Below, in pieces: positions 14,354-61,711 of a stretch of 64,000 bases of DNA. Below the pieces are notes generated by a model. That model was not told where the DNA came from. It worked only from the letters and a program-made list of their open reading frames with translations, and made no database searches. The DNA comes from an archaeon. Lineage in GTDB: Archaea; Nanobdellota; Nanobdellia; Woesearchaeales; UBA9642. The position numbers and the translations under genes were made by a program. Each line of letters begins with the position of its first letter. Positions within the stretch are counted from its first letter, which is position 1. The DNA is taken from positions 29,659-93,658 of the forward strand of contig JAZDHK010000023.1 of NCBI GenBank assembly GCA_043806035.1. Reading direction: 5' to 3'.

Positions 14354-14452
14354 ATGTATAACGAATGCACGTTCCTTTTTAAAGCTTTCTAATTGTAACT
14401 ACTGATTAGTTAATATTTTATCGAGGTGTGTGCTGTGTACACGATATTCTGT

Positions 14453-14477
14453 AAAGAAAAAAGGAGGCTCTTCCTCC
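14453..14477 (-). terminator. Hairpin plus T-tract terminator after tfb and its small downstream ORF
   Basis: Minus strand GGAGG-AAGAG-CCTCC followed by TTTTTTCTTT, right after the stop at 14478. Confidence 0.65.
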
Positions 14478-14657
14478 TCACCTCTTTTCTCGGAAGGTAT
14501 TTTGCTCTTGCTGATACCAGCCAGCATAATATTCCTCATAGCCAAAATCAAAGCCAGTAAATTCTTTGGTAGCTTGTGGCTGAGGTAGGTAGTCTAGTGT
14601 GTGTTCTTCTTTCTCAGATGACTGTCGTTCGGGAGGTTGTTGTGCTGTGTTGTCCAT
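14478..14657 (-). CDS. 59-aa acidic/aromatic microprotein downstream of tfb
   Basis: Own translation MDNTAQQPPERQSSEKEEHTLDYLPQPQATKEFTGFDFGYEEYYAGWYQQEQNTFREKR; starts 4 nt after the tfb stop. Confidence 0.5.
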   Translation of the reverse strand: MDNTAQQPPERQSSEKEEHTLDYLPQPQATKEFTGFDFGYEEYYAGWYQQEQNTFREKR

Positions 14658-14661
14658 GTGA

Positions 14662-15585
14662 TCACTTCTTCTTCTTTTTCGCTTTCTTGATTTCTTTTTC
14701 CAAGTTCAGCTTGTCCAGAAGTTCTTTGTACCTGTTTCTGATCGTGACTTCAGTAACGCCGGCGACATCAGCGACCTCTCGTTGCGTTCGTTTCTCGCCG
14801 TTGATCAGAGCGGCGACGTACAGGCCTGCTGCGGCAATGCCTGTAGGCCCTCTGCCTGATGTCAGCTCGATCTTCTGTGCTGTTTCGATGATCTCCACAG
14901 ACTTCGATTGTGTCTCAGCGCTCAAGTTCAGCGCAGAAGCGAATCGTGCTATATAGTCGCTCGGATTGCTCGGAAGGATGGTGATACCTAGCTCTCTAGT
15001 AATAAATCGGTACGTCCTGCCTATCTCTTTCTTCTCGATGCCTGATGCTTCGTTGAACTCATCAAGCGTTCGGGGCACTTCATGACGCCTGCACGCAGCA
15101 TACAATGCCCCTGCGACGACACTTTCCATGCTCCTGCCACGAACGAGCCCTTTCTGCACGGCAAGCGTGTAGATGCGCGAGGCTTCTTCCTCGACACTAG
15201 AAGGTAATTTGAGATAAGAGGAGACTCTCTTGAGCTCAGCCAAGGCCAATTTGAGGTTCCTTTCGATGGCAGTGTTGATTCGGTGCTGCCACTTCCTGAG
15301 CCTGAAGAATTTGCTCTTGTTCGCTCCACCTAATTGGTAGAGGTCTGACTTCTTGCCAACGTCTGTACCTAGTCCTTGGTCGAACTGCGTGTACGTCATG
15401 GGCGCGCCGGTCCTTCGCTTCCGGGCAGCAGCTTCTGAGTCGAATTCTCGCCATTCCTGGTCGAAATCGACCATTTTCTCTTCAACGACGAGTCCGCACT
15501 CTCTGCAGGTGATTTCTCCTCTATCTTTGTTCCAAAGCAGATTGATACTTCCGCATTCTGGGCATTTCTTGACAAATTGTGCCAT
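14662..15585 (-). CDS. tfb: Transcription initiation factor IIB
   Basis: CPECG...CRECG Zn ribbon, EWREF, two cyclin repeats, GVTEVTIRNRYKEL. Confidence 0.98.
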   Translation of the reverse strand: MAQFVKKCPECGSINLLWNKDRGEITCRECGLVVEEKMVDFDQEWREFDSEAAARKRRTGAPMTYTQFDQGLGTDVGKKSDLYQLGGANKSKFFRLRKWQHRINTAIERNLKLALAELKRVSSYLKLPSSVEEEASRIYTLAVQKGLVRGRSMESVVAGALYAACRRHEVPRTLDEFNEASGIEKKEIGRTYRFITRELGITILPSNPSDYIARFASALNLSAETQSKSVEIIETAQKIELTSGRGPTGIAAAGLYVAALINGEKRTQREVADVAGVTEVTIRNRYKELLDKLNLEKEIKKAKKKKK

Positions 15586-15798
15586 GCTTTTACCCCCAAC
15601 ATGAACAATTATGCTATTAGTTATGTTCCAGCACAACTAATTTTATAAAGGAAATCCGCTTTTACTATATAAACCTTTCGGTTTTTTACAATAGATTTTT
15701 AAAACTTGCGCCTATTTCGTAACCACAACAAAGTGATACTTGTGTTTTGTTTTTTTTGTTTAGGTAGATTTTTATATCAGCTGCATTCCAGCAAAGCT

Positions 15799-16482
15799 AT
15801 GGCAAAACTTGTTTTGGTACGGCACGGCCAAAGCGTATGGAACCTCGCCCCGAACTTTACAGGATGGGTTGATGTACTCTTGACTCCACAAGGAAGAGCA
15901 GAAGCAGAAGCTGCAGGAAAGGCACTCGTCAAAACAAACCTGACTTTTGATGCTATCTTCACCTCGACATTGATACGTGCACATGAGACCTTGCTGCATC
16001 TTCTCTATCAGCTGCACCTAGAGAAGACACTCATCTTTCATTCGGAATATCCTGATCTGGAGCAATGGGCACATCATGCTGCCAAGGAAAGCATCCTTCC
16101 TGTCTTCAAGGCAAAAGCGCTGAATGAACGCTACTATGGCGACCTCCAAGGATTAAACAAGAATGAAACTATCGCAAAATATGGCGCGCAACAAGTACAC
16201 ATCTGGAGAAGAAGCTACAGCACTCCGCCTCCGAATGGAGAAAACCTTAAGGAAACGTGTGCCAGAGCCATTCCCTACTATCAAGAGCGTATCCTGCCAT
16301 TGCTTAACCAGGACAAGAACGTCCTCGTCGTAGCGCATGGTAATTCCTTGCGGGGCATCATCATGTATCTCGAGAACATTTCCGAGACAGATGTTTCCAA
16401 CCTAGAAATTCCGTTAGGCGTTCCTATCGTTTATGAGATAGTTCAGGGAAAGATACTAAATAAAAGTATATTGGAAACGTGA
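15799..16482 (+). CDS. gpmA: 2,3-bisphosphoglycerate-dependent phosphoglycerate mutase
   Basis: LVRHGQS, FTGWVDV, LNERYYGDLQGLNK, AHGNSLR. Confidence 0.95.
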   Translation: MAKLVLVRHGQSVWNLAPNFTGWVDVLLTPQGRAEAEAAGKALVKTNLTFDAIFTSTLIRAHETLLHLLYQLHLEKTLIFHSEYPDLEQWAHHAAKESILPVFKAKALNERYYGDLQGLNKNETIAKYGAQQVHIWRRSYSTPPPNGENLKETCARAIPYYQERILPLLNQDKNVLVVAHGNSLRGIIMYLENISETDVSNLEIPLGVPIVYEIVQGKILNKSILET

Positions 16483-16504
16483 TGCTTTTCAGTGATTCTG
16501 CTCC

Positions 16505-17959: not shown

Positions 17960-18956
17960 TCTCGTCCGCTGCACGGCCTGCCAGAATTACTGCGTTATTG
18001 CGAAGGACACGAGCGGCGTTTGCGGCGTGCGGAGGAACATTGATGGTGATCTCTGCTTGCTCGTGTATGGGCAAGCAAGCGCTGCAAATGTTGATCCTAT
18101 TGAGAAAAAGCCGCTCTACCACGTCCTGCCTGGAGAATCTGTCTTTACGATAGGGACTGTTGGCTGTAATTTCTCCTGCCAGTTCTGCCAGAATTGGGAT
18201 ATTAGCCAGGTGACAAAAGGATTACGGAAAAAGCCACTCGAGCACACTAAAGAGCTACTCGCTTACGGTTACAAGCTCTCCCCTCAGGACATCATTGACA
18301 TCTGCAAAAAACAGCGCATCCCTGCAGTCGCTTTCAGCTACAATGAGCCTGCAATCTTTTTCGAGTACGCGTATGACACGATGCTGCTTGCCAAGAAGGA
18401 GGGCATCAAGACCGTTTTTGTCAGTAATGGGTATGCGAGCAATGAGTCCTTGGACAAGCTTGCAGGACTTCTCGATGCAATCAATATAGACCTGAAGAGT
18501 TTCAAAGACGAATTCTACAGGAAGCATTCGCAGGCACGCCTGCAACCCGTGCTGGACACGATCAAACGATGCCACGACCTCGGCATCTGGGTAGAAGTGA
18601 CGACGCTCTTCATTCCCGGAGAGAATGATGCTGGTCAAGAGATGCGTGACATCATAACGTTCATTGCAGGCATCGATGTCAACATCCCTTGGCACATCTC
18701 CGCGTTCCACCCTTCGTACAAGATGCTTGACAAGCAACCGACACCTCACGAAACCCTGAAGAGAGCGTATCATTTGGGCAGGGAGAAGCTGCATTTCGTC
18801 TATGTGGGAAATGTGCACGATCCAGAACGGAGTGCCACGTATTGTCCACATTGCGAGAAGAAGGTCATTGAGCGGCACGGCAGTGCAGTGCACAATAGTT
18901 TGAGTAAGCAGGCATGCCCGTTCTGCAACACGGCCATTCCCGGAATTTTCAAATAG
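17922..18956 (+). CDS. amrS: AmmeMemoRadiSam system radical SAM enzyme
   Basis: DPIEKKPLYH, GCNFSCQFCQNWDISQ, NIDLKSF; neighbours amrB and amrA. Confidence 0.93.
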   Translation: MHKAILYEKKEHDLVRCTACQNYCVIAKDTSGVCGVRRNIDGDLCLLVYGQASAANVDPIEKKPLYHVLPGESVFTIGTVGCNFSCQFCQNWDISQVTKGLRKKPLEHTKELLAYGYKLSPQDIIDICKKQRIPAVAFSYNEPAIFFEYAYDTMLLAKKEGIKTVFVSNGYASNESLDKLAGLLDAINIDLKSFKDEFYRKHSQARLQPVLDTIKRCHDLGIWVEVTTLFIPGENDAGQEMRDIITFIAGIDVNIPWHISAFHPSYKMLDKQPTPHETLKRAYHLGREKLHFVYVGNVHDPERSATYCPHCEKKVIERHGSAVHNSLSKQACPFCNTAIPGIFK

Positions 18957-19008
18957 AATCACTTTTAAGTAGTAAAATTTATAAATTGGGTGTGTTTTGT
19001 TCTGCAGC

Positions 19009-19359
19009 ATGGACCCAATAGCACGTTTTGAACTGGGCATACGGCATGTCGCTAGACGATATGCCAACCGAGAAGGATATGGCAATCAGCGCAAAGGACC
19101 CAATATTGATATTGGTGAAAAAACTATCCTGCAGGAAATCTATGACCTTCCTCGTTCACACTCCAGCTTCCTCCTTCCCATCTACATCGACAGAGCTGCC
19201 AAGACGATAACGCTTCCCGGCCCTCTCGACAATACTGGAAAACGGGGCAAGCCTCGCGTCTATAAGAACCCCGAAGCGGCAGTGAGAGTATATGAGTGGC
19301 TCTGGCTCGAGACGCACAGGCACTGTGCGCTTGAGGAATTATCCCTTCTCCCTCAGTAG
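19009..19359 (+). CDS. Hypothetical protein between amrS and amrB
   Basis: ORF with its own TTTATAAA box upstream; no family recognised. Confidence 0.5.
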   Translation: MDPIARFELGIRHVARRYANREGYGNQRKGPNIDIGEKTILQEIYDLPRSHSSFLLPIYIDRAAKTITLPGPLDNTGKRGKPRVYKNPEAAVRVYEWLWLETHRHCALEELSLLPQ

Positions 19360-23526: not shown

Positions 23527-24622
23527 GGATATGCCTCACGAATTCTGCAGGGCTCTTTTTTGTCTTAACTGCACTGTTCGAGAAGTGCGTCCGCAAAATG
23601 TCGGAATTGAAGAGCACGTCCATCCTTGGCAGTTTCGGGATGAGCTTTTTTTCTGCAAGAACGTGCGTCTCGTAGAATCCGACGATATCTGTACAGTCTC
23701 CCTCCATGCTGGCCAAGAATTTCTTGAGCGCAGCATACTCAGTATTCGCCAGCATGTTCTTCACAAGGTTCTCATTGGAAAGAAAACCAGTCCACAATGG
23801 TCCAGCAATGATGTATGCTTTGCCGCAGCGGCAGGTTTCGTTGTTGCTCTTGCTCGTCTTCATGCTGAGACAGGAACTACAATAGAGGAAATGCTGGTGT
23901 TGTTTCAGAACCGTATCCACTTTCGTGTTGCCTTTCTCGCACTGGAGGAAGACGCGAAAATAATGGTCGGAAAAATAGCTGAAGACAGGTGTTAAGGCTT
24001 TCTCGTGATGCGCGCCCAGGAGTTGTATTTTCCTGATGAGCATTCTCAAGCCGAGTTCATGCCGTAGTTCATTGTTGAGCGGCTCTGCCCAGTATTTCCT
24101 TCGTCCTGTGTTGAGCCGCGCTCCGCATAGTGCTGCCGTGTCCGTTGCCGTCACTGCCAGTATTCCTTTTCGTGCGAGCCTGACGATGGCATTGTCCAAG
24201 AACGGATTGGGGCTGCCGTACGGATCGATGTCAATGTAATCAAAGCCGTTGGATTCGAGCAGGGCGAGATTAGCGTCCCTTTCCTGGACGACGATTCTGT
24301 CATCATTTTCAAACCCGTTCTGGCGCAGCGTCTCTCGCATGCGTTCTGCAAAACCTGGAGAAAGATCATTCGCGACGATGCGCCTGATGATGCTGGGCGA
24401 GAGTTCTTTGAGAAAACGAACAGTTCTCACTCCGGACGCTGCCATGAGGTCCATCATCGACATGTTTTTCTTGCCGAGACTGTTGAGCAGCACGACAGAG
24501 AGATCCCTGTTCTTCTTCATGACGGGGTTGTAGAATGATATGTTTTTTGTTGGGATTGATTGCTGCACTATTTTTACTTGTGCCGTGTTCTCTTCGATGA
24601 CATGCAGGTGTTCTTTTTTCAT
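23507..24622 (-). CDS. trm1: tRNA (guanine26-N2)-dimethyltransferase
   Basis: FYNPVMKKNRDLS, DIDPYGSP, VTATDTAALCG, GPLWTG. Confidence 0.95.
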   Translation of the reverse strand: MKKEHLHVIEENTAQVKIVQQSIPTKNISFYNPVMKKNRDLSVVLLNSLGKKNMSMMDLMAASGVRTVRFLKELSPSIIRRIVANDLSPGFAERMRETLRQNGFENDDRIVVQERDANLALLESNGFDYIDIDPYGSPNPFLDNAIVRLARKGILAVTATDTAALCGARLNTGRRKYWAEPLNNELRHELGLRMLIRKIQLLGAHHEKALTPVFSYFSDHYFRVFLQCEKGNTKVDTVLKQHQHFLYCSSCLSMKTSKSNNETCRCGKAYIIAGPLWTGFLSNENLVKNMLANTEYAALKKFLASMEGDCTDIVGFYETHVLAEKKLIPKLPRMDVLFNSDILRTHFSNSAVKTKKSPAEFVRHIHDTHTL

Positions 24623-24690
24623 GGAGTGGAGTGTATGTGCTTGTTTTATATGCGTTGTGGGCACAGTCGAGAACGCACTTGTTTATTGAT

Positions 24691-24745
24691 ACTACTATTT
24701 AGTGGTTAAAATGGAAAGGTTTAAATAGTAGTAAATCTTACTACT
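24691..24745 (+). promoter_or_regulatory. BRE/TATA flanked by two palindromic operators
   Basis: ACTACT-ATTT-AGTGGT (24691-24706), then GGAAAGGTTTAAATA, then perfect AGTAGTAA-ATC-TTACTACT (24727-24745). Confidence 0.75.
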
Positions 24746-24752
24746 TCTTACG

Positions 24753-24917
24753 ATGAAGATAAAAATGTCCATTTCAGTCGAGGAAAGCACGCTTGAGCAA
24801 GTAGAGCACATCGTGCAGAACAATCGATTCAGGAATAAGAGCCATTTCATCGAAATGGCAATCCAAACATATCTTAAGAAAGGGGGTGATGAACGTGTTC
24901 CGGAAAAAACAGACTGA
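24753..24917 (+). CDS. Ribbon-helix-helix (CopG/Arc/MetJ) protein, 54 aa
   Basis: Own translation MKIKMSISVEESTLEQVEHIVQNNRFRNKSHFIEMAIQTYLKKGG...; paralogue at 61712. Confidence 0.85.
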   Translation: MKIKMSISVEESTLEQVEHIVQNNRFRNKSHFIEMAIQTYLKKGGDERVPEKTD

Positions 24918-26463
24918 CTCGAAAAGACATGTTGAAACATCCCTGACCTTAGATTATCGATCGGCTGTGTGGGGTATTGAACGTATCGTCCTCGACACCA
25001 TTGCAAATCATCTTCCTGCTGACAGCAAAGGCACAAAAGCCGCGGTGAAGATAAAACAGCAAGGAACCTATAGAGATATTTCTCAGTCAGATTTTTCTCA
25101 GCCAGCCGAGGAAGTCGTCTTTGAGGATGACGGCCAAGGCTATGACTCTGGTTTATTGACTGTGCTGCAGTCAACGAAAATGAATGAACTGTGTAGCGTT
25201 GGCCAGTTTGGAGAGGGACTGAAAATGGTGGCAGCAGCTGCGCTCCGTAACAATCTCGACTTAGAATACCGTTCAAGAGATTGGTCTGCACGACCATTCA
25301 TTAAAGAAGAAACTATCGCGGGAACAAGGGTCAAGCGGCTCTGTTTCTCTATTGATAAACGACCCGCCATGCAAGGATCACAGACCATCATACGCAAACC
25401 TTCCCCTGAATTGATGACTGAACTCTCAGTGCTAGAAAGGAAGGCACTGCCTTTTGCAGAATATAAAACACTCTACACAGAGCCAAAAGGAGGAAAAACC
25501 TACCCTGCTCGCATTCTTGAGCTGGCAAAACCTGCTCTTTTCGTGAAAGGAATCCGCATACAAGATAGGCACAGTATTTTCAGTTATGATCTTGGCATCG
25601 AAGACATCACTCCAGATAGATATTTCACTAAAATGGATACCTTGCTTGATGAGATACAGCGTCTTCTGAACGCAACTGACAATCCTGAAGTGATAGAGCG
25701 TGTCTTGGCGAAAGCGGAAGATGAGCCATATGGGGGGTATGATGAATTCCGTGCATTTGAGAGTAGAGAACAAGAAAGGTCAGGTTATTTTTGTGGAATG
25801 TTTCTTGATACTATTGACCCCATTGTGTTACTTAAATCAGTCGGGATGAAAAAAACGTTGTTCAATGCATTGAGTGCATACATCAAAGAACCAATACAGA
25901 CTGAGTCTGTATGGAAGAGGTCATTCACTAAACTGTTCGGCGATAACGCAATCCTGGCATCTGATTGTGATGTGACCAACAAGGATGCTGTCGCATTAGG
26001 ATATATTCCTGTCAAGTTGCACAGAGGCATTGCGCACAAGCTTATCAAAGAAGATGTCCAGAGCGCTGACCAGCTTGAGATCACGAAAGACTATAAGTGG
26101 ATAAGCAAGGATGATCTGACTCCTGAAGAGCGAACAATCTATGATTGTGCAAATGAAATTCAACAAGTTGTGCTTGAGCAACCGGTTCCTGTCGATCTTC
26201 GCGTGTATTCAGGCGTTTACGCCAACACTGGCAGAGAACTCGAATCCAACACGGGCATCTATATGCCTGCAAAACCACGGGACATCATAGGCATTAAGCG
26301 CTCCCAGCTTACCGATCTCGTGAGTTTTGCAGATACGTATCTTCACGAACTCGGACACAAAGTGACTGGCGAGGGAGACTACAGTAGAAGACACACTGCT
26401 TTCTTCACCCGCGCTCTTGCAAAACTCGTTTCTGCTCAACTGGGCAAGCATGCCAATCTTTAA
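24886..26463 (+). CDS. GHKL (Hsp90/MutL-like) ATPase fused to a C-terminal HExxH metallopeptidase-like domain (start may be 24895)
   Basis: DTIANH (N-box-like), EDDGQG (G1), GQFGEGLK (G2), LHELGH near the C-terminus. Confidence 0.7.
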   Translation: MMNVFRKKQTDSKRHVETSLTLDYRSAVWGIERIVLDTIANHLPADSKGTKAAVKIKQQGTYRDISQSDFSQPAEEVVFEDDGQGYDSGLLTVLQSTKMNELCSVGQFGEGLKMVAAAALRNNLDLEYRSRDWSARPFIKEETIAGTRVKRLCFSIDKRPAMQGSQTIIRKPSPELMTELSVLERKALPFAEYKTLYTEPKGGKTYPARILELAKPALFVKGIRIQDRHSIFSYDLGIEDITPDRYFTKMDTLLDEIQRLLNATDNPEVIERVLAKAEDEPYGGYDEFRAFESREQERSGYFCGMFLDTIDPIVLLKSVGMKKTLFNALSAYIKEPIQTESVWKRSFTKLFGDNAILASDCDVTNKDAVALGYIPVKLHRGIAHKLIKEDVQSADQLEITKDYKWISKDDLTPEERTIYDCANEIQQVVLEQPVPVDLRVYSGVYANTGRELESNTGIYMPAKPRDIIGIKRSQLTDLVSFADTYLHELGHKVTGEGDYSRRHTAFFTRALAKLVSAQLGKHANL

Positions 26464-26487
26464 AAACTAGCAGATGTCTCTTCACAC

Positions 26488-28245
26488 ATGGTCGACGCAG
26501 CATGCTTTCGTAGCCCTATCGTCTCTGTGCTTGGTCATGTTGATCATGGCAAGTCCAGTGTCCTTGATGCTATCCGCGGGACGAATATCGTCAAGACGGA
26601 AGCAGGACAAATCACGCAGGCGATAGGCGCAAGCATTATCCCGCTTGACGTCATCATGAAACGCTGCAGCAAGCTCCTCAAAGACAAGCCGTCCTTCTCC
26701 ATTCCTGGATTGCTGTTCATCGACACGCCAGGCCACGCGGCATTCATGGGCATGCGCAAGCGTGGAGGCAACCTTGCTGATATCGCCATTCTCATCGTCG
26801 ACATCAATGAAGGGTTCAAGCCGCAGACGATTGAAAGCATAAAGATACTGCGTTCCCAGAAGACTCCCTTCGTCGTTGCCCTCAACAAGATGGACCTCAT
26901 CGCCAATTATCGAAAGCAAGCAGACCTGCTCATGGATGATATTCAGCAGCAGCGAGCGGACGTACAGCAAACGCTGGACAATAAGCTCTACACGATCGTG
27001 GGACAGTTCTATGAACAGTTCGAGCTGCAAGCAGAACGGTATGATCGGTGTGATTTCACCAAACAAGTTGCCCTCGTCCCGTGCAGCGCAAAGCAGGACA
27101 TAGGCATTGCAGAATTGCTCATGGTGCTTATAGGACTAACGCAGAAATACTTGCAAGAGTCTCTCGCCTTCTCCGCACAAGGCCCCGCCAAGGGCAGTGT
27201 CATGGAAGTCAAGGAATCCCCCGGATTGGGCACGTGCATGAACGTCATACTTTACGATGGCAGCCTCGCCGTCAACGACACCATTGTCATAGGCGGGATA
27301 GACAAGCCGACCGTGACAAAAGTCAGGGCATTGTTCGAGCCCTACCCGCTGCACGAGATGCGGGACAAGAAGAGCAAGTACAAGTCCGTCGAGCATGTCT
27401 GTGCAGCTACGGGCGTGCGCATTGCCGCCGCCCAGGATGTCGATGCCGTCATTGCGGGCATGCCCCTCATGAGCTGCGAAGACACGCCTGAAGCGATAGC
27501 TGAGGCAGAGCAGCAACTGCAAGAGACGTTCGAGGAACTGCCATTGGAGAAAGAGGGCATCATCATCAAGGCGGACACGCTCGGCAGCCTCGAAGCGCTC
27601 GCTGTCCTCTTGAAAGAAAATGCCATTCCCGTACGGGCAGCAACTATCGGTGCTGTTTCCAAAAAAGACATCGCTGACGCAGAATCAGAACAAGAACCAA
27701 CGTTCAGGGTCATTCTCGGCTTCAATGTCAAGGACGAGTCAGGCCTGCAGAGCGTCAAGGTCATCACGAACGATGTCATCTACCGGCTTATCGATGATGT
27801 CGAGCAGTGGCAGCAGTCAGTCAAGGAGAAGGAAGAGGAACGTGCACTCGACTTGATGACCAGACCCTGCAAGCTGGAGGTGCTGCAGAACTGCATCTTC
27901 CGCCAGAGCAATCCTGCCGTCGTCGGTGTGGAGGTGCTCGTTGGCGTTCTGCAGAAAGGCATGCCACTTATGAAGAACGGCCAGCGTCTTTGCATCGTAA
28001 AGAGCATGCAGAAAGAAAAAGAGAATATAGACCGGGCGGAGAAGAAAGACCAAATTGCCATTTCTCTGCCGGACGTGGTGTGCGGCAGGCACCTCTTCGA
28101 AGGCGACGTTTTGTACAGTGACATTCCTGAAGAGCAATTCCGAGAACTCAAAAAATTCAAGAAACATCTAGCGAGAGATGAACTCGATCTTATGAAGGAG
28201 ATTGCGGAATTTCATAGAAAAGACAATCCTGTCTGGGGGATATGA
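26488..28245 (+). CDS. infB: Translation initiation factor aIF5B
   Basis: GHVDHGKS, DTPGH, NKMD, DTLGSLEAL. Confidence 0.97.
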   Translation: MVDAACFRSPIVSVLGHVDHGKSSVLDAIRGTNIVKTEAGQITQAIGASIIPLDVIMKRCSKLLKDKPSFSIPGLLFIDTPGHAAFMGMRKRGGNLADIAILIVDINEGFKPQTIESIKILRSQKTPFVVALNKMDLIANYRKQADLLMDDIQQQRADVQQTLDNKLYTIVGQFYEQFELQAERYDRCDFTKQVALVPCSAKQDIGIAELLMVLIGLTQKYLQESLAFSAQGPAKGSVMEVKESPGLGTCMNVILYDGSLAVNDTIVIGGIDKPTVTKVRALFEPYPLHEMRDKKSKYKSVEHVCAATGVRIAAAQDVDAVIAGMPLMSCEDTPEAIAEAEQQLQETFEELPLEKEGIIIKADTLGSLEALAVLLKENAIPVRAATIGAVSKKDIADAESEQEPTFRVILGFNVKDESGLQSVKVITNDVIYRLIDDVEQWQQSVKEKEEERALDLMTRPCKLEVLQNCIFRQSNPAVVGVEVLVGVLQKGMPLMKNGQRLCIVKSMQKEKENIDRAEKKDQIAISLPDVVCGRHLFEGDVLYSDIPEEQFRELKKFKKHLARDELDLMKEIAEFHRKDNPVWGI

Positions 28246-28703
28246 TGCTGGCACTCAAGCCAATGAACAGCAAAGATGTCAAGCACGTCAAGCAGCTGCT
28301 CAAAGAACAGTTCGGCATAGCTGCACTTCCCGACGGCTTCTTTTTTATCAACAAGGAGCACAAGCTCTACTTTATCAACAGGGACGTTGACCGTGTTGAT
28401 TTTGAGCAGCTCAGGATAGACACGCTTGGCATGTATTTTGGCGAGCTCGAGGAGGATGGCATCAGGCTCAGTATGGATGCCTGCCAGCTGCTCGGCCAAA
28501 ACGCAAGCAAGAATGTTCTTTTACTTACTGCTGGGCAGCTTGAGCACTGGGTGAAAGGAGAGACGATGAACTGGGCATCAGACACAAGAGGATTCGTGCT
28601 TGTTCGTTATGGGAATGATTTTCTCGGCTGTGGAAAGTTGGGCAAGGATAAACTCTACAATTATGTCTCAAAATCACGAAAGCTTAAAGTGCTCAATGCC
28701 TGA
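28242..28703 (+). CDS. NIP7/RsmF C-terminal PUA-like protein
   Basis: LGMYFG, IRLSMD, DFLGCGK, LYNYVSK.R. Confidence 0.7.
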   Translation: MMLALKPMNSKDVKHVKQLLKEQFGIAALPDGFFFINKEHKLYFINRDVDRVDFEQLRIDTLGMYFGELEEDGIRLSMDACQLLGQNASKNVLLLTAGQLEHWVKGETMNWASDTRGFVLVRYGNDFLGCGKLGKDKLYNYVSKSRKLKVLNA

Positions 28704-29862
28704 AGAGCAATCCTTGTGCGTACTCTCTCAAGAACGGCGTGCTCATGGTGCCGAATGCTGCATCTCCTAATCGTTCTCCAAATGTATCGCCTTGCAGTTT
28801 GCTCTCATAGAACGTGTCTGCAAACTTGCCGTGCTGCTTGAGGATGTGTCCTTCCCTGAGCAGATGAAAGAGCTTCACCCGCTGCATGTTCATCCTGTCT
28901 CTGCTGACGAGATCTGCTTCGCGTGATTTTCTGATTATTTCATCGACGTCGCTTCTTGTTCTGTCTGCAAGCTGTTGCTGTATCAGGATGTTTTTCTGCT
29001 CGGTGAGGAATAGGTCATGATAGTCTTTAGGGAATTTGAAAGGGTGCCCATAGGCGTGCGTGAACTCTTCCCTGGCAGCACGGCTGGCATGCATGCTCTC
29101 CTTGTATTCAGCAGGCGCATGCAACAGGCCATAGATGTATTCCTGGAGACGTGCGGCGAACGAGCTGACGTAACAGGAGACGTTCGGTTCTTTCGTGAGC
29201 AGCGTATCTATCATGAGAAATCCATCCCGTACATTTTTTGTGTGGAAGGTGCCGCTCTTGTTCAGTGCCTGGTCCATGATGCGTATCTCGTTGAGAATCT
29301 GCTTGCCTCGCTTGATGCGTGCGCGCATGTAGTTGTTCGTCATGCCAAGTTTTGGATTGACGGCATTGATGGCGTCGGCGAGAGAAAAATAGTAGATTGA
29401 CTTCCTTCTCGTATAGTATGCTTTGGTGAGTGCCTCTTCGCCGTCTTCGTATTCGAGAATTTTGTTGGATATGCTCCGTACTGCTCTGGCGAAGAACGGG
29501 ATGCTGATGCGATGCTCGGAAGGAATAGCCAAGGATTTGAGCGATTTGCCGATGCGTTCTTTCGTCTGTGGCGTTCCTTCGATGAATGCCTCAGCGTTCT
29601 GCATAAGCTCTGGTGAGAGAGGGAATTGTTGGACATCCTGGATGTACCGTGCAGTAAATACTGCTGCCGCATCAGGATCGGTGTCGATGAGCTCCCCGTA
29701 TCGTGATAGGAAGATGTTTCTTTGCAGCGACGGAGATACTGATTGTATGCTGTCGATAAGAGGGGTGATACGCGCATCGAGTTGTGCGCGCTGCTCATCC
29801 GTGTAGAGCATGTCCTCTATCCGTCGTGGTTGCACCATATCTTTCATGCGTGTTCGAAGCAT
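28693..29862 (-). CDS. Hypothetical helical protein (start may be 29847)
   Basis: Long ORF with its own BRE/TATA; no family recognised. Confidence 0.7.
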   Translation of the reverse strand: MLRTRMKDMVQPRRIEDMLYTDEQRAQLDARITPLIDSIQSVSPSLQRNIFLSRYGELIDTDPDAAAVFTARYIQDVQQFPLSPELMQNAEAFIEGTPQTKERIGKSLKSLAIPSEHRISIPFFARAVRSISNKILEYEDGEEALTKAYYTRRKSIYYFSLADAINAVNPKLGMTNNYMRARIKRGKQILNEIRIMDQALNKSGTFHTKNVRDGFLMIDTLLTKEPNVSCYVSSFAARLQEYIYGLLHAPAEYKESMHASRAAREEFTHAYGHPFKFPKDYHDLFLTEQKNILIQQQLADRTRSDVDEIIRKSREADLVSRDRMNMQRVKLFHLLREGHILKQHGKFADTFYESKLQGDTFGERLGDAAFGTMSTPFLREYAQGLLFRH

Positions 29863-29904
29863 GCTTGTCGTATATAAATGTTTCTATTTGTAATCACTAT
29901 ATAG

Positions 29905-30603
29905 TTATAACTTTTTTAGTGCGTCTGGCAATGCCATGATGGACAGAATGGTTTTGTCGACGAAGGGATAGTGCACGTCTCGCTGTAATGCTTCCTGTGT
30001 CCAGATGGTTTTCATGCCGAGCTGTTTTGCAGGCAGCAAATCCATCTCCGGATGATCGCCCACCATGGCTATTTCCTGAGGTCGCAGCTGGAGCTGCTTC
30101 ATGATGAGCCGCCAGCCTGCAGGATCAGGTTTGTTCGCGAACACGTCATCGCTCGTCACAATCTTTTTGAAAAATTGGTCAATGCAGAGCTTCTTGATGC
30201 GTTCGAGCTTTATGGGTTTGTAGCCGTCACTGTCGCTGAACATGCAGAGCGTGTACTGCGTTGACAGTTCTTGGAGAATCTCTATTGTTCCAGGAAATAA
30301 CGTGCTGACCTCGAGGATTTTCTTCCAATACGCATCCTCGAGTGATTTCACTTCAGGAATATCATAGTCTGCGTTGAGCGTATGCAATGCTGTGCTGATC
30401 CAGGTCTCCCTGCTCATGTCGATAGGTCGTTTGGTCTTATGCACGTACTTAGCCTTGGCTGCATTGAATGCATCAAGAAACGCTTTTTGCGTGAGTCCGT
30501 ACTGCTTAGCGGCGAGTGAAGCCACCTGTGCATCAGCCTCCGCTTCTGCAGGGCTCCACCGCTCCAACGTATCGTCAAAATCAAAGATGACTGCACTAAT
30601 CAT
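29905..30603 (-). CDS. HAD-superfamily hydrolase
   Basis: FDFDDTL, KPDP, MVGDHPEMD. Confidence 0.92.
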   Translation of the reverse strand: MISAVIFDFDDTLERWSPAEAEADAQVASLAAKQYGLTQKAFLDAFNAAKAKYVHKTKRPIDMSRETWISTALHTLNADYDIPEVKSLEDAYWKKILEVSTLFPGTIEILQELSTQYTLCMFSDSDGYKPIKLERIKKLCIDQFFKKIVTSDDVFANKPDPAGWRLIMKQLQLRPQEIAMVGDHPEMDLLPAKQLGMKTIWTQEALQRDVHYPFVDKTILSIMALPDALKKL

Positions 30604-30839
30604 AGCATCTCATCGATGGGTGGTTTTTTGCCATCCTTCTTCTCGACTGCCTCTTTCTGCAGATCAACGCCTAATTCCTTGAGCGCTGAGACGTGCATGT
30701 GCATGAGCTGCTCGACAATCTGCAGAATCCGTGCCAGCTCCTGCCTCTCCTTTGCCAGTGTTGACAATGCGCCTTTATGAAATCCTATCTGCTCCTCTTT
30801 TGTTTCCTTGCTCGCTTCTGGTTTGTCTTTCTTCGCCAT
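30600..30839 (-). CDS. Small coiled-coil hypothetical protein
   Basis: SD GAGGAGA; overlaps the start of the HAD gene. Confidence 0.7.
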   Translation of the reverse strand: MAKKDKPEASKETKEEQIGFHKGALSTLAKERQELARILQIVEQLMHMHVSALKELGVDLQKEAVEKKDGKKPPIDEML

Positions 30840-30913
30840 AGTCTCTCCTCAATATGCTTTTTGCACAAAGAGTGACGGCAATATTTATAAAGATGCTTTA
30901 TTTTTGGGGATAC

Positions 30914-31444
30914 ATGCTGTTGCAACAGATTTCCCAAACCGTCTTGACGATCATCGTCGCCGTTCTTGTCTTGTTTATGGGGCTTATCCTTGGACTGGTC
31001 TTGCGCAAGTTGATCAAGCGTCTCCTAGGCATTCTCAAGCTGAACGACGTGCTCTATCGTCTTAGCGGTGTTAAGACGAAGATGGACGTAGTGCTTTCTT
31101 GGGCAGTCGCCATGGCAGTGTATGCTATTACTATTTATCTTGTGTTGGGCAAGCTCGGCATTCTTCGCGTTGCGGGAATATTATTTTTTTCCTGCCTTGG
31201 CGTGTTGTTCCTGCTCTGGCTGCTCTTCGGTGCCAAAGATGCAATAACGAATTACTTTGCGGGAAGACCGCTGCGCAAACACCTGCACGTGGGAAGCGCG
31301 GTTTCATTCGGGTCTATCAAAGGCATCGTGCAACGGCTGGGCGCGTGTGAGTGCGTGCTTAGAAGTGGGGACGAGCTGTACGTCGTTCCCTACATCATTG
31401 CAGTTTCTCCAGCAAAGAAGAAACGTGATAAATCTGTGTCCTGA
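30914..31444 (+). CDS. MscS-like mechanosensitive channel protein
   Basis: Three TMs, KDAITNYFAG, VG..V....IKG.V beta domain. Confidence 0.7.
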   Translation: MLLQQISQTVLTIIVAVLVLFMGLILGLVLRKLIKRLLGILKLNDVLYRLSGVKTKMDVVLSWAVAMAVYAITIYLVLGKLGILRVAGILFFSCLGVLFLLWLLFGAKDAITNYFAGRPLRKHLHVGSAVSFGSIKGIVQRLGACECVLRSGDELYVVPYIIAVSPAKKKRDKSVS

Positions 31445-31646
31445 CGAATCCCTGCAGGTTGTTGTCTTCTGCAAGCGAGTCAAGCAGGGTGAGGCTTTTG
31501 TTGACGATGAGTGAGCTGTCTTCCTTCTTGTTTTGCAGGTTTTCTCTGATTTCGCGCATCCGCTCCCGAACGTTACGGGGAAGGTCGTCATCTGTTTCTA
31601 GTTCCTGTAGCGCTTTGAGCAACTCGATAAGGACGTCATGTTTCAT
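31395..31646 (-). CDS. UPF0147 family protein
   Basis: D..LPRNVR, D.NL..FVRTQI...S.LE. Confidence 0.85.
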   Translation of the reverse strand: MKHDVLIELLKALQELETDDDLPRNVRERMREIRENLQNKKEDSSLIVNKSLTLLDSLAEDNNLQGFVRTQIYHVSSLLEKLQ

Positions 31647-31650
31647 GGTT

Positions 31651-31959
31651 TCACTTCATCTTGGCAAGAACAGCAGAACGAATGTCCTCTGATTTTTTCT
31701 TGAGCTTCTCTTCCTGCTTCTCTATGTTTTTTATGCGTATGACCAATAATTCTTTCTTCTCCTGTAATTCCTGACGAAGCTGTGCTGTTGGTGTTTTGAC
31801 CATGAGGTTGCCGATGATCCTGTAGGCGTCATCTTGCTGTGTGAGTTCCTGCAGTGCAGATTCTAGTTCTGCCTGCTGTGCCTGGAACTGCTGACGCTGG
31901 CCTGACAGATGCTGGATGTTCTGTTCAATCACTTGGAGTTGTTGGATGTCTTTTTCCAT
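31651..31959 (-). CDS. pfdB: Prefoldin subunit beta
   Basis: Coiled coils around YRIIGNLMVK; synteny. Confidence 0.9.
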   Translation of the reverse strand: MEKDIQQLQVIEQNIQHLSGQRQQFQAQQAELESALQELTQQDDAYRIIGNLMVKTPTAQLRQELQEKKELLVIRIKNIEKQEEKLKKKSEDIRSAVLAKMK

Positions 31960-32173
31960 GTTCGCTCAGTTGCTCATGCAAGGTGAGGAGCTTCGTTATG
32001 GCGTTGCAGGTCGTGCGCAATGCGACTGAGTCCTGCGCTTGGATGGTGAAGATAGTCTTCGTTGCGTCATGCAGCACGGCATACGTCGCCCTGTTGCCGA
32101 TGTTCTTATCCTCTGCGGCAAAACTTTTTGCAATGCTGCCGTGCGGGTCATCGATGGTGATGGTGGCGTTCAT
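31925..32173 (-). CDS. pcc1: KEOPS subunit Pcc1
   Basis: IQAQDSVALRTTCN; located between rpoP and pfdB. Confidence 0.8.
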   Translation of the reverse strand: MNATITIDDPHGSIAKSFAAEDKNIGNRATYAVLHDATKTIFTIQAQDSVALRTTCNAITKLLTLHEQLSEHGKRHPTTPSD

Positions 32174-43838: not shown

Positions 43839-43892
43839 AATATTTAAGTACTTTTAACACTATAAAATAGTAACAAAAAAGAGGTGAGCATT

Positions 43893-44345
43893 ATGAACAC
43901 ACACAAGACAGGAAAACCAACCATTACAAGGAAACTGGCGATAGGCCTTATAGGACTGCTCTGTGCAGCGACATTGTATGCAGGATGCAATGCATATGAA
44001 CAATCAAGAAAAGAACACGATCTGCATCTGCAGCAGCTCACGAGCACCAACTCTCAGCTTGAAGGTGAAGAGAGAAACCTGCAATCGTTTGCAAGAGAGA
44101 CACTCAGACGCGGGGACGTCATGTACAAGTATGCCAATGCGAGCCCGCGCACCTGGAAGGAATTAGAAGAGAATGACTCCACCTTCCAACGGCTTGCCGC
44201 AGAATACGACGGGGCAAGAATGGCAGAGCAGTGGCTGCGAAATTATGTGCGAGAAGACCGTGCAAAAAGAAACGAGCTATCGGTCGAGCTGACGGGAAAG
44301 AAATATGAGGACAGTCAATTCTCTACCAAATCTCAATCTGAGTAA
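43893..44345 (+). CDS. Hypothetical membrane-anchored coiled-coil protein
   Basis: SD GAGGTGA; one TM followed by helical heptads. Confidence 0.7.
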   Translation: MNTHKTGKPTITRKLAIGLIGLLCAATLYAGCNAYEQSRKEHDLHLQQLTSTNSQLEGEERNLQSFARETLRRGDVMYKYANASPRTWKELEENDSTFQRLAAEYDGARMAEQWLRNYVREDRAKRNELSVELTGKKYEDSQFSTKSQSE

Positions 44346-50438: not shown

Positions 50439-50528
50439 ATGTGTTCTTCGAGAAAGATATTTCCCCCTTGATATATTTACTATTTATTAGTGGTAAAGAT
50501 GGAAACATTTATAAGGGAGTTGGTGTTC

Positions 50529-52157
50529 ATGCTACCAATGACGCTCGAAAACAAGGCGCTACTAACCCTCAATGGAGAAAACTCGTTCATTTCTCTCAGT
50601 GACCCTGATGTCTTTGAAGGCAGGCCGTGCATTGACCATAAGGCACTCTTCACGGTCTTGCCAAAAAAAGCCATTGACACAGAAAGCCTACTGAACGCGG
50701 ACATGCAACAATTTCATAAGACCATTGACGAAACGACAACGCAGATAGGCTCTGCAACGTTCTACCGTTCCTTATGCAGTCCGCTCACGAATCCCGATGA
50801 CATCATCAAGAAGCAACATGCCGTACAAGAGCTCGAATCCAACAATTTGTTGCGGCAGCGCGTGCAGGAATATCTTGGTGAATTCGTAAAAGTGGAACGT
50901 GACCTTTTTCGATTCCTCATGCAGGATGGAGACCGTCCGCGGGACACGTATACCATCTTCAAAAAAGCGCAGCAGGCGGCAGCTGTCTTTTCTGACTTAA
51001 CGGCCAGCAATGGCGATGGCATCACGTCGGACTATCTGAAAACCCTCTTGCGACGTGTCATGACCGTTGATAATTCAAGACCCTATCGCATGCTCGTCCA
51101 CAATCCTTATCTTACCTTCAATGGCGTCGTTCCTCTAAATGAGTTGAAATGGTATATACCGCGCAGGGAACTAAAACCATCCCCGTGGACGTTGGATGCT
51201 ATTGCGCTTCCTCTTTTCTCGACGCTCGGCACGGGGGGCATACTCGATCTCATGAGCACAGGAATTGGCCAATACATTGCCATAGGAACGGTCTCTGTGG
51301 GTACGGCCATGGGTCTTGCCGGATATTTGTCGTGGAGAAAAAATGCCTTCTACGAGAAGGTCATGCAGCCGATAAAGACGGGCCTCCTCAATGATGCTGC
51401 TTTCAATTATGCTATGGAAGCGACGGGAACGTTGGATGAACTTCTTTCCTTCATCACCTTCAGAAAGCGCTATCCAAACATGACGTGCATGCCTAAAATT
51501 GTCGATGGTCCTGAACAATATATCAAAACGAAGAACCTGAAAAGCCCCGTCATGATTATGCAGTCAGACCATCCCGGTTTTGACATTGACCTGAGCGAGC
51601 AGAACAACATGGTCGTTACCGGCAGGCACAGTACGGGCAAGAGTAAGCTCGGCAGGAGATTGTTCTATGCTGCAGTCCAGGCACAGACAGGCTCGCATGT
51701 CATGGCAGATGCATTTGAGATTGTGCCCGCGGATAAGTTATTCTTCCACATGAGCATGATGGAAAGCGCAGGTGTGCAAGGCGGAGGCGTTGAGCAGGAG
51801 TTTGCCTATCTCAAGTCTATGTGGGATCAGAGCACGCCGAAAACATTTATCATCATGCACGATGTTGGAGGGACGCTTCCTGATTCCGAGGTCATTGCCC
51901 AGGAGAAGCGGCTCATGGGTGGGTATTACCGCATGGGCGGCACGACCATCCTCATTACTTCCTATGGTCCCTTGGCAAAAGACCTGGCAGACAGTGGATT
52001 AGCTGCCTGCATCCATGCAGAACTCAGAGGAAAAGCGCCGACCGGCAGATTCGTACCCGGCATCCATCACGAAAGCAACATTGAGTACTTGCAGCAAACA
52101 AGCGTGCTCTTTACCGATGAAGAGATCAGCTCACGTCTCGCTCAGTTTGGAAGATGA
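50529..52157 (+). CDS. MutS-related protein (domains III and V, TM hairpin, degenerate ATPase; start may be 50538)
   Basis: IDETTTQIGSATFYRSL..PL, VTGRHSTGKS, IIMHD. Confidence 0.72.
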   Translation: MLPMTLENKALLTLNGENSFISLSDPDVFEGRPCIDHKALFTVLPKKAIDTESLLNADMQQFHKTIDETTTQIGSATFYRSLCSPLTNPDDIIKKQHAVQELESNNLLRQRVQEYLGEFVKVERDLFRFLMQDGDRPRDTYTIFKKAQQAAAVFSDLTASNGDGITSDYLKTLLRRVMTVDNSRPYRMLVHNPYLTFNGVVPLNELKWYIPRRELKPSPWTLDAIALPLFSTLGTGGILDLMSTGIGQYIAIGTVSVGTAMGLAGYLSWRKNAFYEKVMQPIKTGLLNDAAFNYAMEATGTLDELLSFITFRKRYPNMTCMPKIVDGPEQYIKTKNLKSPVMIMQSDHPGFDIDLSEQNNMVVTGRHSTGKSKLGRRLFYAAVQAQTGSHVMADAFEIVPADKLFFHMSMMESAGVQGGGVEQEFAYLKSMWDQSTPKTFIIMHDVGGTLPDSEVIAQEKRLMGGYYRMGGTTILITSYGPLAKDLADSGLAACIHAELRGKAPTGRFVPGIHHESNIEYLQQTSVLFTDEEISSRLAQFGR

Positions 52158-59749: not shown

Positions 59750-59877
59750 CCTGGCTCTTAGGCAAATAGTGCTCCCGAGTGGAGTTTTCTTGTTTTGCAG
59801 GAATTGCGTCATGCTCGGTTCGGGGTTCGTGTACACGGCATAACGGAACGGAGCACGACCATTTGCCTAAGTGCAGG
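59750..59877 (-). other. Structured intergenic element (candidate ncRNA or degenerate MITE)
   Basis: Nested stems CTTAGGCAAAT/ATTTGCCTAAG, GTGCTCC/GGAGCAC and CGTCATGC/GCATAACG. Confidence 0.5.
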
Positions 59878-59919
59878 TAAGCCCATAAACTATTTAAAAG
59901 ACGCTTTCTTTCAAGGAGT

Positions 59920-60318
59920 ATGCGCTACTTACGCATTACCATTATCAAGACAGACAGTCCTGGTGGGCACAACATCAATGATGCTTTGCAGTGGCTCGGC
60001 CAGAGCCTCGGCCTCTTCGGTGAGAGGGACAAGGACAAGAGCTGCTTCAGGATTTTTATCGAATTGCTCAAGCATCTCAAGAAGGGTGGCATGAGCAGCG
60101 ATGAGCTTGCCGCGCGTCTAGGGCTGACGAGGGGAACGGTAGTGCATCACCTCAACAGGCTCATGGAGGCAGGTCTTGTCAGCAACAGGAACAGCAAGTA
60201 CTTTCTGAATGTCGAAAATCTTTCTCAGCTCGTCGACGAAGTGGAAGCGAACCTGCAGCAGACCTTCTCTACGCTGCGTAAGGTTGCCAAGAAAATAGAT
60301 GAGCAACTGGAATTATAG
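59920..60318 (+). CDS. Winged-HTH regulator (ArsR/TrmB-like)
   Basis: SSDELAARLGLTRGTVVHHLNRLMEAGLV. Confidence 0.88.
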   Translation: MRYLRITIIKTDSPGGHNINDALQWLGQSLGLFGERDKDKSCFRIFIELLKHLKKGGMSSDELAARLGLTRGTVVHHLNRLMEAGLVSNRNSKYFLNVENLSQLVDEVEANLQQTFSTLRKVAKKIDEQLEL

Positions 60319-60352
60319 ATACTTATCTTGATATCCTTGCAAGAAAAAAGGA

Positions 60353-60874
60353 CTATTGTTCTTTCTTGTTTATGGTTATTATTTTCTCGATAGCTTTTTC
60401 TAAAGTTGCTTTTATGCTATCTGCAGTTTGTACCTTTGAATAATCAACGTTTATACAAGATACTCCTCTGTGTCTTACTGCTTTTGCTGCATCTACTTCC
60501 CTACCTTTTTCTTCCTTAAAGAAGACTCTGCCATCTCTTATGTATGGAGCATATGTATCAAGATGATTCTCAGAGGAACTATCTGCCATGTAATCTAAAT
60601 CTCTTATTACTATCAAAAGTCCTCTCTTTGGATTAATCTCAAGATGACTATATCCGCAGCCAGAGCCTCCTTCTGCAAATTGTATCGGATGTCCATATTC
60701 TCTTATGGCATCAAGTAGTTCTGTGTCCCTTAGAAGTTCTACAAGTGTTGCGTGGATTGCCTTTTGTACCTTTTCTTCAGTTTCATCCTTCAGTTCTCTT
60801 TCTGTTTTACTCTTTCTTAGGTCGTCCAGATACATTTTGTAGTGCGGTTCATCCTTTTTGTCGTGGTTGCTCAT
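60353..60874 (-). CDS. Hypothetical protein, AT-rich
   Basis: Long ORF with visibly different base composition. Confidence 0.6.
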   Translation of the reverse strand: MSNHDKKDEPHYKMYLDDLRKSKTERELKDETEEKVQKAIHATLVELLRDTELLDAIREYGHPIQFAEGGSGCGYSHLEINPKRGLLIVIRDLDYMADSSSENHLDTYAPYIRDGRVFFKEEKGREVDAAKAVRHRGVSCINVDYSKVQTADSIKATLEKAIEKIITINKKEQ

Positions 60875-61047
60875 ATTATGGAAGAGGCTGGCTGACTATA
60901 TGAATATTAGTATATATTTGTTACTCGTGAATGAACATGAACGAGATTTGAATATTGAAACCATTTACGTATGTGCTTTGGTGAGTGACGCTCTTGATCG
61001 TAATCTGTTTTCGATTAGTATTTAAAGATAAGATTCACTCTTGCAGT

Positions 61048-61575
61048 ATGATCATCACTCTCGGTGGCCAGATGGGCAGCGGCAAAAGCACTGTCGCTGA
61101 GATTCTCGCAAAGCAATTGCACTACAAGCGCTATTCCATGGGGGAGTTGCGCAGGAAGATGGCATTGGCGAGAGGCATGACGCTCGAGGAATTCAACAAG
61201 CTGGGAGAGAAAGAGTCGTTCACGGACAAGGACGTTGATGAGTATCAGAAAGAGCTTGGCGAGAAGGAAGATGATTTCATCGTCGACGGCAGGCTGAGCT
61301 TCTTCTTCATTCCCCTATCGTTCAAAGTGTTTCTCACTGTTGATCCGGACGTTGGAGCTGCACGCTTGCTCGGCAGACCTAAAAAAGAAGAGCAGTATGC
61401 TACTGTCGAAGAGGCGAAAGCTGCCCTGGAACGCCGGATGAAATCAGACAAGAAACGCTATTTCATGTATTATGGCGTTGACTGCTATGATCCGAAGCAG
61501 TTCGACCTGGCCATTGACACGACGCACTTGGCTCCTGAACGGGTAGCAAAGGAGATTCTGGATCGGTTGCCCTGA
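61048..61575 (+). CDS. cmk: Cytidylate kinase (archaeal type)
   Basis: GQMGSGKST, DGRLS, D.KRY...YG.D, IDTT. Confidence 0.92.
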   Translation: MIITLGGQMGSGKSTVAEILAKQLHYKRYSMGELRRKMALARGMTLEEFNKLGEKESFTDKDVDEYQKELGEKEDDFIVDGRLSFFFIPLSFKVFLTVDPDVGAARLLGRPKKEEQYATVEEAKAALERRMKSDKKRYFMYYGVDCYDPKQFDLAIDTTHLAPERVAKEILDRLP

Positions 61576-61711
61576 CACAAGCAATTTTGTGTTCACTATG
61601 AAGTAAATACTATATAGGAAGGTTTAAATAACCAGGGGCATTTCTGTAACCATCAGATCATATCATATTATGTGGGCCACGAACAGTGGATCATGGTGTG
61701 CAGGTGATGTA

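Follow-up and report, generated by a model that had tools for sequence, protein, structure and literature searches.

A 26-nt palindrome beside the core promoters of dispersed genes in a Woesearchaeales archaeon, with a TrmBL2-like pair as candidate binder

Archaeal regulators of the TrmB family read short inverted repeats; TACT-N3-AGTA, TATCAC-N5-GTGATA and TACT-N7-8-GAGTA are among the operators described, and in these accounts binding upstream activates and binding downstream represses (PMC4158304, PMC4706686). Templates carrying an upstream Thermococcales glycolytic motif (TGM) were activated in vitro in two out of three cases (PMC4706686), and both papers take Ptr2 and TFB-RF1 as their model for TrmBL1 sites in upstream position (PMC4158304, PMC4706686). 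Here we describe a palindrome of this general type in the genome of a woesearchaeal archaeon (GenBank assembly GCA_043806035.1, designated G000; 1.50 Mb, 42 contigs, 49% G+C). The element had been noticed in a stretch of 64,000 nucleotides, positions 29,659 to 93,658 of contig JAZDHK010000023.1 (C23:29659-93658; hereafter the window), where it precedes the transcription factor B recognition element (BRE) and TATA box of scattered genes. We put at even chances the reading that this common palindrome is the operator of one global regulator, most likely a TrmBL2-like dimer, which would switch its targets as a block. A literature search that left supplements aside turned up no paper that describes this motif or a TrmB-family regulon from DPANN archaea.

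The closest described system is the TGM operator with the TrmBL1/Tgr regulon of the Thermococcales, as it is set out in PMC4158304 and PMC4706686. Both have a palindrome with a CAC...GTG core and dozens of sites per genome, placed either ahead of BRE/TATA, which goes with activation, or past the TATA box, which goes with repression, and in both the gene of the regulator, here a candidate, stands under a site of its own. They differ in half-site spacing (CAC-N6-GTG here, N5 in the TGM), in the conserved arms, which are much longer here (26 bp), and in the strict register of 2-4 nt to the BRE that is seen here. They also differ in abundance, with ~140 sites in 1.5 Mb here compared to 70 motif occurrences reported for P. 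furiosus. The targets in the present genome are mostly genes of unknown family and not those of sugar metabolism, and the candidate protein, unlike TrmBL1, is without a sugar-binding subdomain.

The candidate protein resembles TrmBL2 (PF0496/TK0471; PDB 5bpd, 5bpi, 5box, 5bqt) in having a winged helix, a coiled coil and a phospholipase D (PLD)-like C-terminal domain in ~260 amino acids (aa), with 27-28% identity in the Foldseek alignment and a very similar recognition-helix region. TrmBL2, however, is reported to coat DNA with little sequence specificity and a preference for AT-rich DNA, whereas the present data imply a sharply defined motif of 26 bp that keeps register with the promoter; a further difference is that the genomes studied here carry two conserved copies each, plus 0 to >20 extra paralogues. 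Ptr2 of M. jannaschii and TFB-RF1 of P. furiosus belong to the Lrp/AsnC family and to another helix-turn-helix type, and their target promoters have weak core elements. The present arrangement is like theirs in that a dimer site abuts the BRE, with presumed contact to TBP/TFB, but their regulons are small, their families are different, and the core promoters here are near consensus. The bacterial xenogeneic silencers H-NS, Lsr2, MvaT and Rok read AT-richness and DNA shape and then spread, and they target compositionally atypical, poorly conserved and scattered genes. The targets here are likewise scattered and have a lower G+C content at third codon positions (GC3); unlike the silencers' determinants, the element is a discrete palindrome in a fixed promoter register, and repression is only one possibility for it.

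An iterated symmetric model trained on the genome gave a 26-nt consensus, TTGTAAYCACT-N4-AGTGRTTACAA. At model positions 8-10 the frequencies were A.93, C.70 and T.87, with AGT as the mirror, and the inverted repeat thus holds the ACT...AGT or CAC...GTG core of TrmB-type operators. Sites were called at ≥14 bits against a background of 10 shuffles of 60-nt blocks, which kept the local AT content. At this cut-off 162 windows of the genome matched (141 merged sites) compared to a shuffle mean of 16.3, and at ≥18 bits 99 matched compared to 2.0 in composition-matched shuffles. Because the model had been trained on the same genome, the run was repeated with half of the contigs used for training and half for testing, and the held-out contigs gave 45 vs 4.5 and 89 vs 13.6. 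The palindrome is therefore enriched over an AT-matched background, and the set of about seven genes first proposed grows to ~140 sites across the genome, with 79 transcription units or more. The pattern CACT-Nx-AGTR was found 99 times with N4, 14 times with N3, and 50-59 times with each of N2 and N5-N8, so the enriched spacing is N4. By crude gene calls, the centres of 113 of the 141 sites were intergenic despite 91.5% of the genome lying under such calls, and the distribution of sites over contigs was uneven (chi-square p 5e-5). The 16-nt pattern by which the element was first described, with one mismatch allowed, gave 9 matches in the window vs 10.4 expected; it was not enriched, and was uninformative because it is too degenerate.

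Strict GAAANNTTTAWA boxes numbered 90 genome-wide, and the palindrome was present at 35 of them, with the 26-mer ending 2-4 nt before GAAA in all 35. This bears out the original description of a shared cis element just upstream of BRE/TATA. A TATA-like box began 5-12 nt after the 26-mer at 84 of the 141 sites; 13 further sites lay between a TATA-like box and the gene start, 18 more (class A on the opposite strand) were also so placed, and 44 of the 141 were unclassifiable for promoter position under the crude rules used. Both placements expected of TrmB-type operators, upstream of BRE/TATA and between TATA and start, were thus represented. Two spacing classes were observed, one with the TATA start at +8..+12 (65 cases) and one at -1..+2 (18 matches, ~14 sites); in the minor class the TATA box abuts the palindrome and is about one helical turn closer. 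Adjacency to the BRE, the tight register and the existence of another class one helical turn off point to a stereospecific contact with TFB/TBP, as judged from the sequence.

A recognisable BRE/TATA 20-80 nt upstream was found for 257 genes, 54 of which carried the palindrome, and palindrome scores at TATA genes were bimodal, with 57 at ≥10 bits and 51 at ≥16. The start codon lay 29-30 nt past the TATA start at motif and non-motif promoters alike, so the transcripts look leaderless. The resulting module of ~60 bp consists of the operator, 2-4 nt, the BRE GAAA, TTTAWAWA and a start codon ~30 nt on. Promoters with the motif were nearer consensus than those without it, both for G at -6 (0.69 vs 0.27) and for TT at +18/+19 (0.61/0.70 vs 0.37/0.42). 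The TT at +18/+19 after the TATA start, often within CATTTC and ~10 nt past the TATA box, was frequent in all promoters and stronger with the motif; it may represent an initiator or promoter-proximal element in this lineage.

All seven sites listed in the earlier note were present as written and on the strands given there, at 18.5-27.5 bits, and an eighth was found between them. The features of the window, including a second repeat at a ribbon-helix-helix (RHH) gene, are as follows.

14393-14418, minus strand: common palindrome, 20.8 bits; BRE/TATA at 14376-14389; beta-CASP/RMMBL RNase gene 12890-14353 (-)
18953-18978, plus strand: common palindrome of the minor spacing class, 21.3 bits; gene 19009-19359, without Pfam family
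24686-24711, plus strand: common palindrome, 27.5 bits; BRE/TATA at 24714-24727; RHH gene (RHH_1) 24753-24917
24727-24745: second inverted repeat AGTAGTAAATCTTACTACT, covering the expected start site ahead of the RHH gene 24753-24917
29888-29913, minus strand: common palindrome, 24.2 bits; BRE/TATA at 29871-29884; gene 28693-29847 (-), 384 aa, no Pfam family
42542-42567, plus strand: common palindrome, 22.4 bits; BRE/TATA at 42570-42583; gene 42615-42962, 115 aa, no Pfam family
43851-43876: eighth site, overlooked at first, 22.5 bits
50474-50499, plus strand: common palindrome, 24.9 bits; BRE/TATA at 50502-50515; MutS-like gene 50529-52157 (MutS_III, MutS_V)
61587-61612, plus strand: common palindrome, 18.5 bits; BRE/TATA at 61617-61630

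The RNase gene 12890-14353 matched the Pfam families Beta-Casp, Lactamase_B and RMMBL. At the site 18953 the TATA box (TTTATAAA, from 18978) abuts the 26-mer and there is no space for a separate BRE. The eighth site separates a TrmB-like gene, 42997-43752 (-), from a divergent gene for 150 aa, 43893-44345 (+); a TATA-like box was found at 43839-43850 and a paralogue-specific palindrome at 43820-43838, so that for the divergent gene the site falls between TATA and the ribosome-binding site. Behind the site 61587 stand a second RHH paralogue, probably 61712-61861, and then an AAA_5 (MoxR-like) gene, 61845-63200. The open reading frame of 525 aa behind the first RHH gene, 24886-26463 (+), matched no Pfam family at E≤0.01, a result that gives no support to its former label of 'GHKL/peptidase'.

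The 11-bp arms are able to fold, and the ~60-bp module is unusually uniform in its G at -6 and TT at +18/+19, features that would suit an element not bound by protein at all, for example a hairpin or terminator in the RNA of the upstream gene, or a mobile promoter cassette that was copied repeatedly. We regard this as extremely improbable. The variable mirror positions demonstrated no compensatory covariation, with positions 6/19 less symmetric than chance; specific bases are conserved beyond mere pairing; and the register follows the TATA box and not the stop codons upstream. Copies also differ in their flanks and in the unconserved N4 centre, and most of the genes behind them (73 of 79) are singletons unrelated to one another; hence they do not represent a single repeated element. 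Since the mirror positions did not covary, a single binding specificity fits the data, and in this respect the proposal of one factor behind the set stands. The same observation argues against sub-motif classes for different paralogues.

The presence of the motif in related genomes was assessed by counting the pattern YACTNNNNAGTRRTWA against its reversed control, in counts that are descriptive and not tests, kin not being independent. The pattern was found 53 times vs 4 for the control in this genome, and among close relatives 35 vs 1 in G004, 28 vs 3 in G007, 24 vs 2 in both G023 and G026, and 44 vs 15 in G017. Several other close relatives demonstrated little or no excess, including G010 (10 vs 8) and G029 (7 vs 6). 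A sample of 121 genomes contained 93 of the same order (G000 among them), which summed to 1183 vs 362, with peaks of 51 vs 1 in G075, 50 vs 8 in G078 and 42 vs 3 in G039; its 28 genomes from other orders of the class summed to 151 vs 79.

Of the 79 downstream genes, 73 were singletons; the rest were a four-member family of TrmB-like regulators and the two RHH genes of the window, and a single paralogous gene family sharing its promoter was thereby ruled out. Pfam families were searched in the 40 best-scoring motif genes and in 20 random TATA genes without the palindrome, the latter including ArgRS, thymidylate kinase, KsgA, STT3 and an ABC ATPase. A family above the curated cut-off was found for 11/40 motif genes vs 14/20 controls (Fisher p 0.0024), and at E≤0.01 for 13/40 vs 17/20 (Fisher p 0.00025). 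Motif genes also had a lower GC3 (0.529 vs 0.596, p 8e-11) and a lower coding score, and the share of TATA genes with the motif fell across rising GC3 quartiles, from 27/64 through 13/64 and 10/64 to 4/65. The Pfam and GC3 comparisons bear out the idea of a dispersed set of mainly accessory genes; the companion statement, that the motif is not found at housekeeping promoters, describes a strong tendency but not a rule. Membrane or secreted proteins as the target class were ruled out, a hydrophobic segment being predicted for 23% of motif genes vs 31%.

Eleven further motif genes were picked by size, not at random, and are not comparable with the 40 vs 20; 6 of them passed the Pfam cut-off, namely the beta-CASP RNase, a pyruvate kinase, PmbA/TldD, a DnaJ-kinase, an Ig-like surface protein and an AbrB/MazE-like protein. 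Altogether 17 of 51 scanned downstream genes passed, and the only glycolytic one was a second copy of pyruvate kinase; a regulon centred on sugar uptake, glycolysis or gluconeogenesis, as is typical of TrmB, was not seen among these 51. The motif-bearing pyruvate kinase (C1:127747-129129 (-), L123/L132; operator of 22.3 bits) is 36% identical to the copy shared with relatives (C28:60571-61956), which has no site here (-0.1 bits) and weak ones only in relatives. Because the motif-bearing gene is the extra copy, it provides no orthologous promoters for footprinting. Two other target genes have unusual domain content. The 319-aa product of C15:4116-5075 (-) (L007), whose 27.2-bit site is among the best, matched Sigma54_DBD, the bacterial sigma-54 DNA-binding domain, in an archaeal genome (E 2e-13, 50.8 bits vs a cut-off of 22.8). 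The DnaJ-kinase, encoded outside the window at C23:14242-15252 (L129) behind a 16-bit site, is a 336-aa fusion of a DnaJ domain with a eukaryote-type protein kinase domain.

The four-member TrmB-like family among the downstream genes led to a search with PF01978, which gave 13 paralogous loci above cut-off, encoding proteins of 233-290 aa with ~20% mutual identity except for one pair at 59%. A profile of these paralogues aligned end to end with P. furiosus TrmBL2 (5bpd), positions 4-241/242 onto residues 7-262/264 (E 5.4e-15), and matched TrmB (3qph) over its N-terminal 135 positions only; with a length of ~260 aa and no TrmB sugar-binding barrel, the family is of the TrmBL2 kind. It has the N-terminal TrmB winged helix, and the position of Tyr50, described as important for DNA binding in the TrmB family (PMC4158304), is nearly invariant in the alignment. 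An AlphaFold2 model of the protein encoded at C33:341-1147 had a predicted local distance difference test (pLDDT) score of 81; its top 8 Foldseek matches were TrmBL2 chains, and its C-terminal half matched PLD-fold domains. This gene and C16:63754-64626 form the candidate pair in G000.

The PF01978 family was found in 121/121 sampled genomes. Seven motif-rich genomes hold just 2-3 members, and in the three of these that were checked (G078, G037 and G144) the sole two members were orthologues of the C33/C16 pair. C33-type orthologues in five motif-rich genomes, which span families of the order, shared 54-61% identity with C33, and a site of ≥14 bits was present upstream of 8/11 C33-type orthologues in those five distant genomes. 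In close relatives such a site was found upstream of 17/20 TrmBL2-like orthologues, usually at -131..-153 and followed by BRE/TATA, and the C33 gene itself is preceded by the second-highest-scoring site of the genome (29.1 bits). Because motif-rich genomes can have C33-type members only, and these have upstream sites, we favour the conserved TrmBL2-like winged-helix pair as binder of the common palindrome, with a confidence that reaches an even chance at best.

Several observations weigh against this assignment. The 3' flanks that served as controls for the 20 orthologues were noisy (up to 21.7 bits). The pair is present in G029 and G010 and yet the motif has almost no excess there, so the presence of the TrmBL2-like protein is not sufficient. 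The N4 spacing (ACT-N4-AGT, that is CAC-N6-GTG) equals no characterised TrmB-family operator, and TrmBL2 of the Thermococcales is presented as a largely non-specific, AT-preferring chromatin protein (PMC11840125; PDB titles). The site also stands before 16/20 RHH genes, so that a site ahead of its own gene singles out no family. Family size and motif count were strongly correlated in 31 close kin (rho 0.78; 0.66 for the excess over control) and weakly so in the 121-genome sample (0.24-0.29); part of the correlation is a matter of course, since every paralogue locus adds a site of its own. An activator also seems less needed at core promoters that are near consensus.

A regulator from another family may bind instead, with the TrmB-like and RHH genes merely among its targets. 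The site lies ahead of regulator genes of several kinds (TrmB-like, RHH, AbrB/MazE-like and Sigma54_DBD-like), the survey of candidates covered part of the DNA-binding proteins of the genome, and the half-site spacing is, as said, foreign to the TrmB family. However, ACT/AGT and CAC/GTG cores are typical of TrmB-family sites, and the TrmBL2-like pair, well conserved across the order, was the sole tested candidate in every sampled genome. We consider a binder from another family unlikely.

The TrmB-like paralogues as a group were also associated with the palindrome. A site of ≥14 bits was present at 8/13 paralogues (10/13 at ≥13), ~105-139 nt before the winged-helix coding start; in relatives it was present at 25/40 top-scoring TrmB-like homologues from 14 genomes, mostly at -97..-126, and at 0/38 of the 3' flanks. 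The order of elements in these intergenic regions is conserved: start codon and ribosome-binding site of the divergent gene, common palindrome, a TATA box with its BRE side toward the divergent gene, a private palindrome, and the BRE/TATA of the regulator gene. The private palindromes stand just before the BRE/TATA of each TrmB-like paralogue (43820-43838 in the window; further loci on C28, C13, C41 and C8; L079, L083, L088, L085 and L104), and each occurs only once in the genome and is kept in the orthologues of other genomes. Several share the outer TTGT...ACAA with the common site.

Such an arrangement could mean that the expanded, lineage-specific paralogues (11 of the 13) jointly read the common palindrome, as many sensors on one operator. 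The upstream sites at ~105 nt, in relatives as well as at the 8/13 (which include the conserved C33 gene), agree with this, as do the conservation of the recognition-helix region among the paralogues and the way in which family size tracks motif count in close kin. The motif-rich genomes with 2-3 members speak against it, the three checked having only the conserved C33-type pair, and conversely genomes with 19-22 paralogues may have little motif (G121, 5 vs 0; G099, 12 vs 2). The unique second palindromes, kept in orthologues, suggest private operators. Joint reading by the expanded set is therefore distinctly unlikely in our judgement, and their flanking sequences suggest that these paralogues regulate locally, each through a private operator, while standing under the common site in turn. 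Between 1 and 27 copies of the TrmBL2-like family were counted per genome, with a range of 2 to 27 inside a single genus (G001-G030, sample G031-G146), which indicates rapid gain and loss of extra paralogues.

The earlier note had suggested the RHH (CopG-like) paralogues as the common binder that co-regulates the set. Both RHH genes of the window are directly behind an operator-promoter module, and among 20 RHH homologues, 18 of them from relatives and 2 from G000, the common site is retained by 16, at ~-65..-70. They also have an inverted repeat of their own, GTAGTAA-N2-5-CTTACTAC, between TATA and ATG and over the start site (window 24727-24745; L153-L172), in which GTAGT/ACTAC resembles a half-site of the common palindrome. 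This repeat differs between RHH subgroups, whereas the common palindrome is constant, and it is probably the operator of the RHH protein itself. An RHH homologue was not found at E≤0.001 in 15/31 relatives, including the motif-rich G007, G017 and G023, by a 54-aa query short enough to miss some. Nor is the unconserved N4 centre predicted for a single centred RHH dimer. The RHH genes thus appear as conserved targets with a repeat of their own, and their role as the one factor is quite improbable.

With the conserved TrmBL2-like pair as the favoured binder, the following mechanism may be proposed. The operator would act while joined in fixed helical phase to a near-consensus archaeal promoter; the recognition helices of a TrmBL2-like dimer would read the CACT/AGTG cores, and the protein, bound directly beside the BRE, would contact or obstruct TFB/TBP. 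Roughly 80-140 dispersed transcription units would in this way be switched as a block; most would be genes of atypical composition that match no known family, and with them would go local regulators, namely TrmB-like paralogues and RHH operons. For sites between the TATA box and the start codon, such as those at genes divergent from TrmB-like paralogues, repression would be expected. The activator role ascribed to the site from the outset is one that we, too, can infer from position only. Near-consensus core promoters and compositionally atypical targets favour repression or silencing. The sequencing runs listed for window positions 24000-33000 were three DNA runs from one study, with no RNA run among them. 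On balance, activation or licensing has about one half of our credence and repression a somewhat smaller part, and a condition-dependent dual role takes the small remainder.

In small-genome uncultured archaea no regulon has so far been defined experimentally, and the operator described here offers a means of grouping genes whose function is unknown, in their hundreds, as members of one co-regulated programme. Such a sharp, conserved operator lends itself to a concrete and cheap binding test of a TrmBL2-like protein, and the promoter-plus-operator module is ready for future genetics in these lineages. It may also link a family of archaeal chromatin proteins to the sequence-specific control of accessory genes. 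A more far-reaching reading, which we hold to be unlikely at present, is that in this DPANN order a TrmBL2-like chromatin protein has turned into a sequence-specific gatekeeper of the flexible genome. If so, a 26-bp palindrome at the BRE of about one fifth of TATA promoters would silence (or license) fast-evolving genes of foreign composition and unknown family jointly with their private regulators. This would be an archaeal counterpart of xenogeneic silencing that works through a discrete promoter code and not through AT-richness, and the switch could possibly be thrown on contact with a host.

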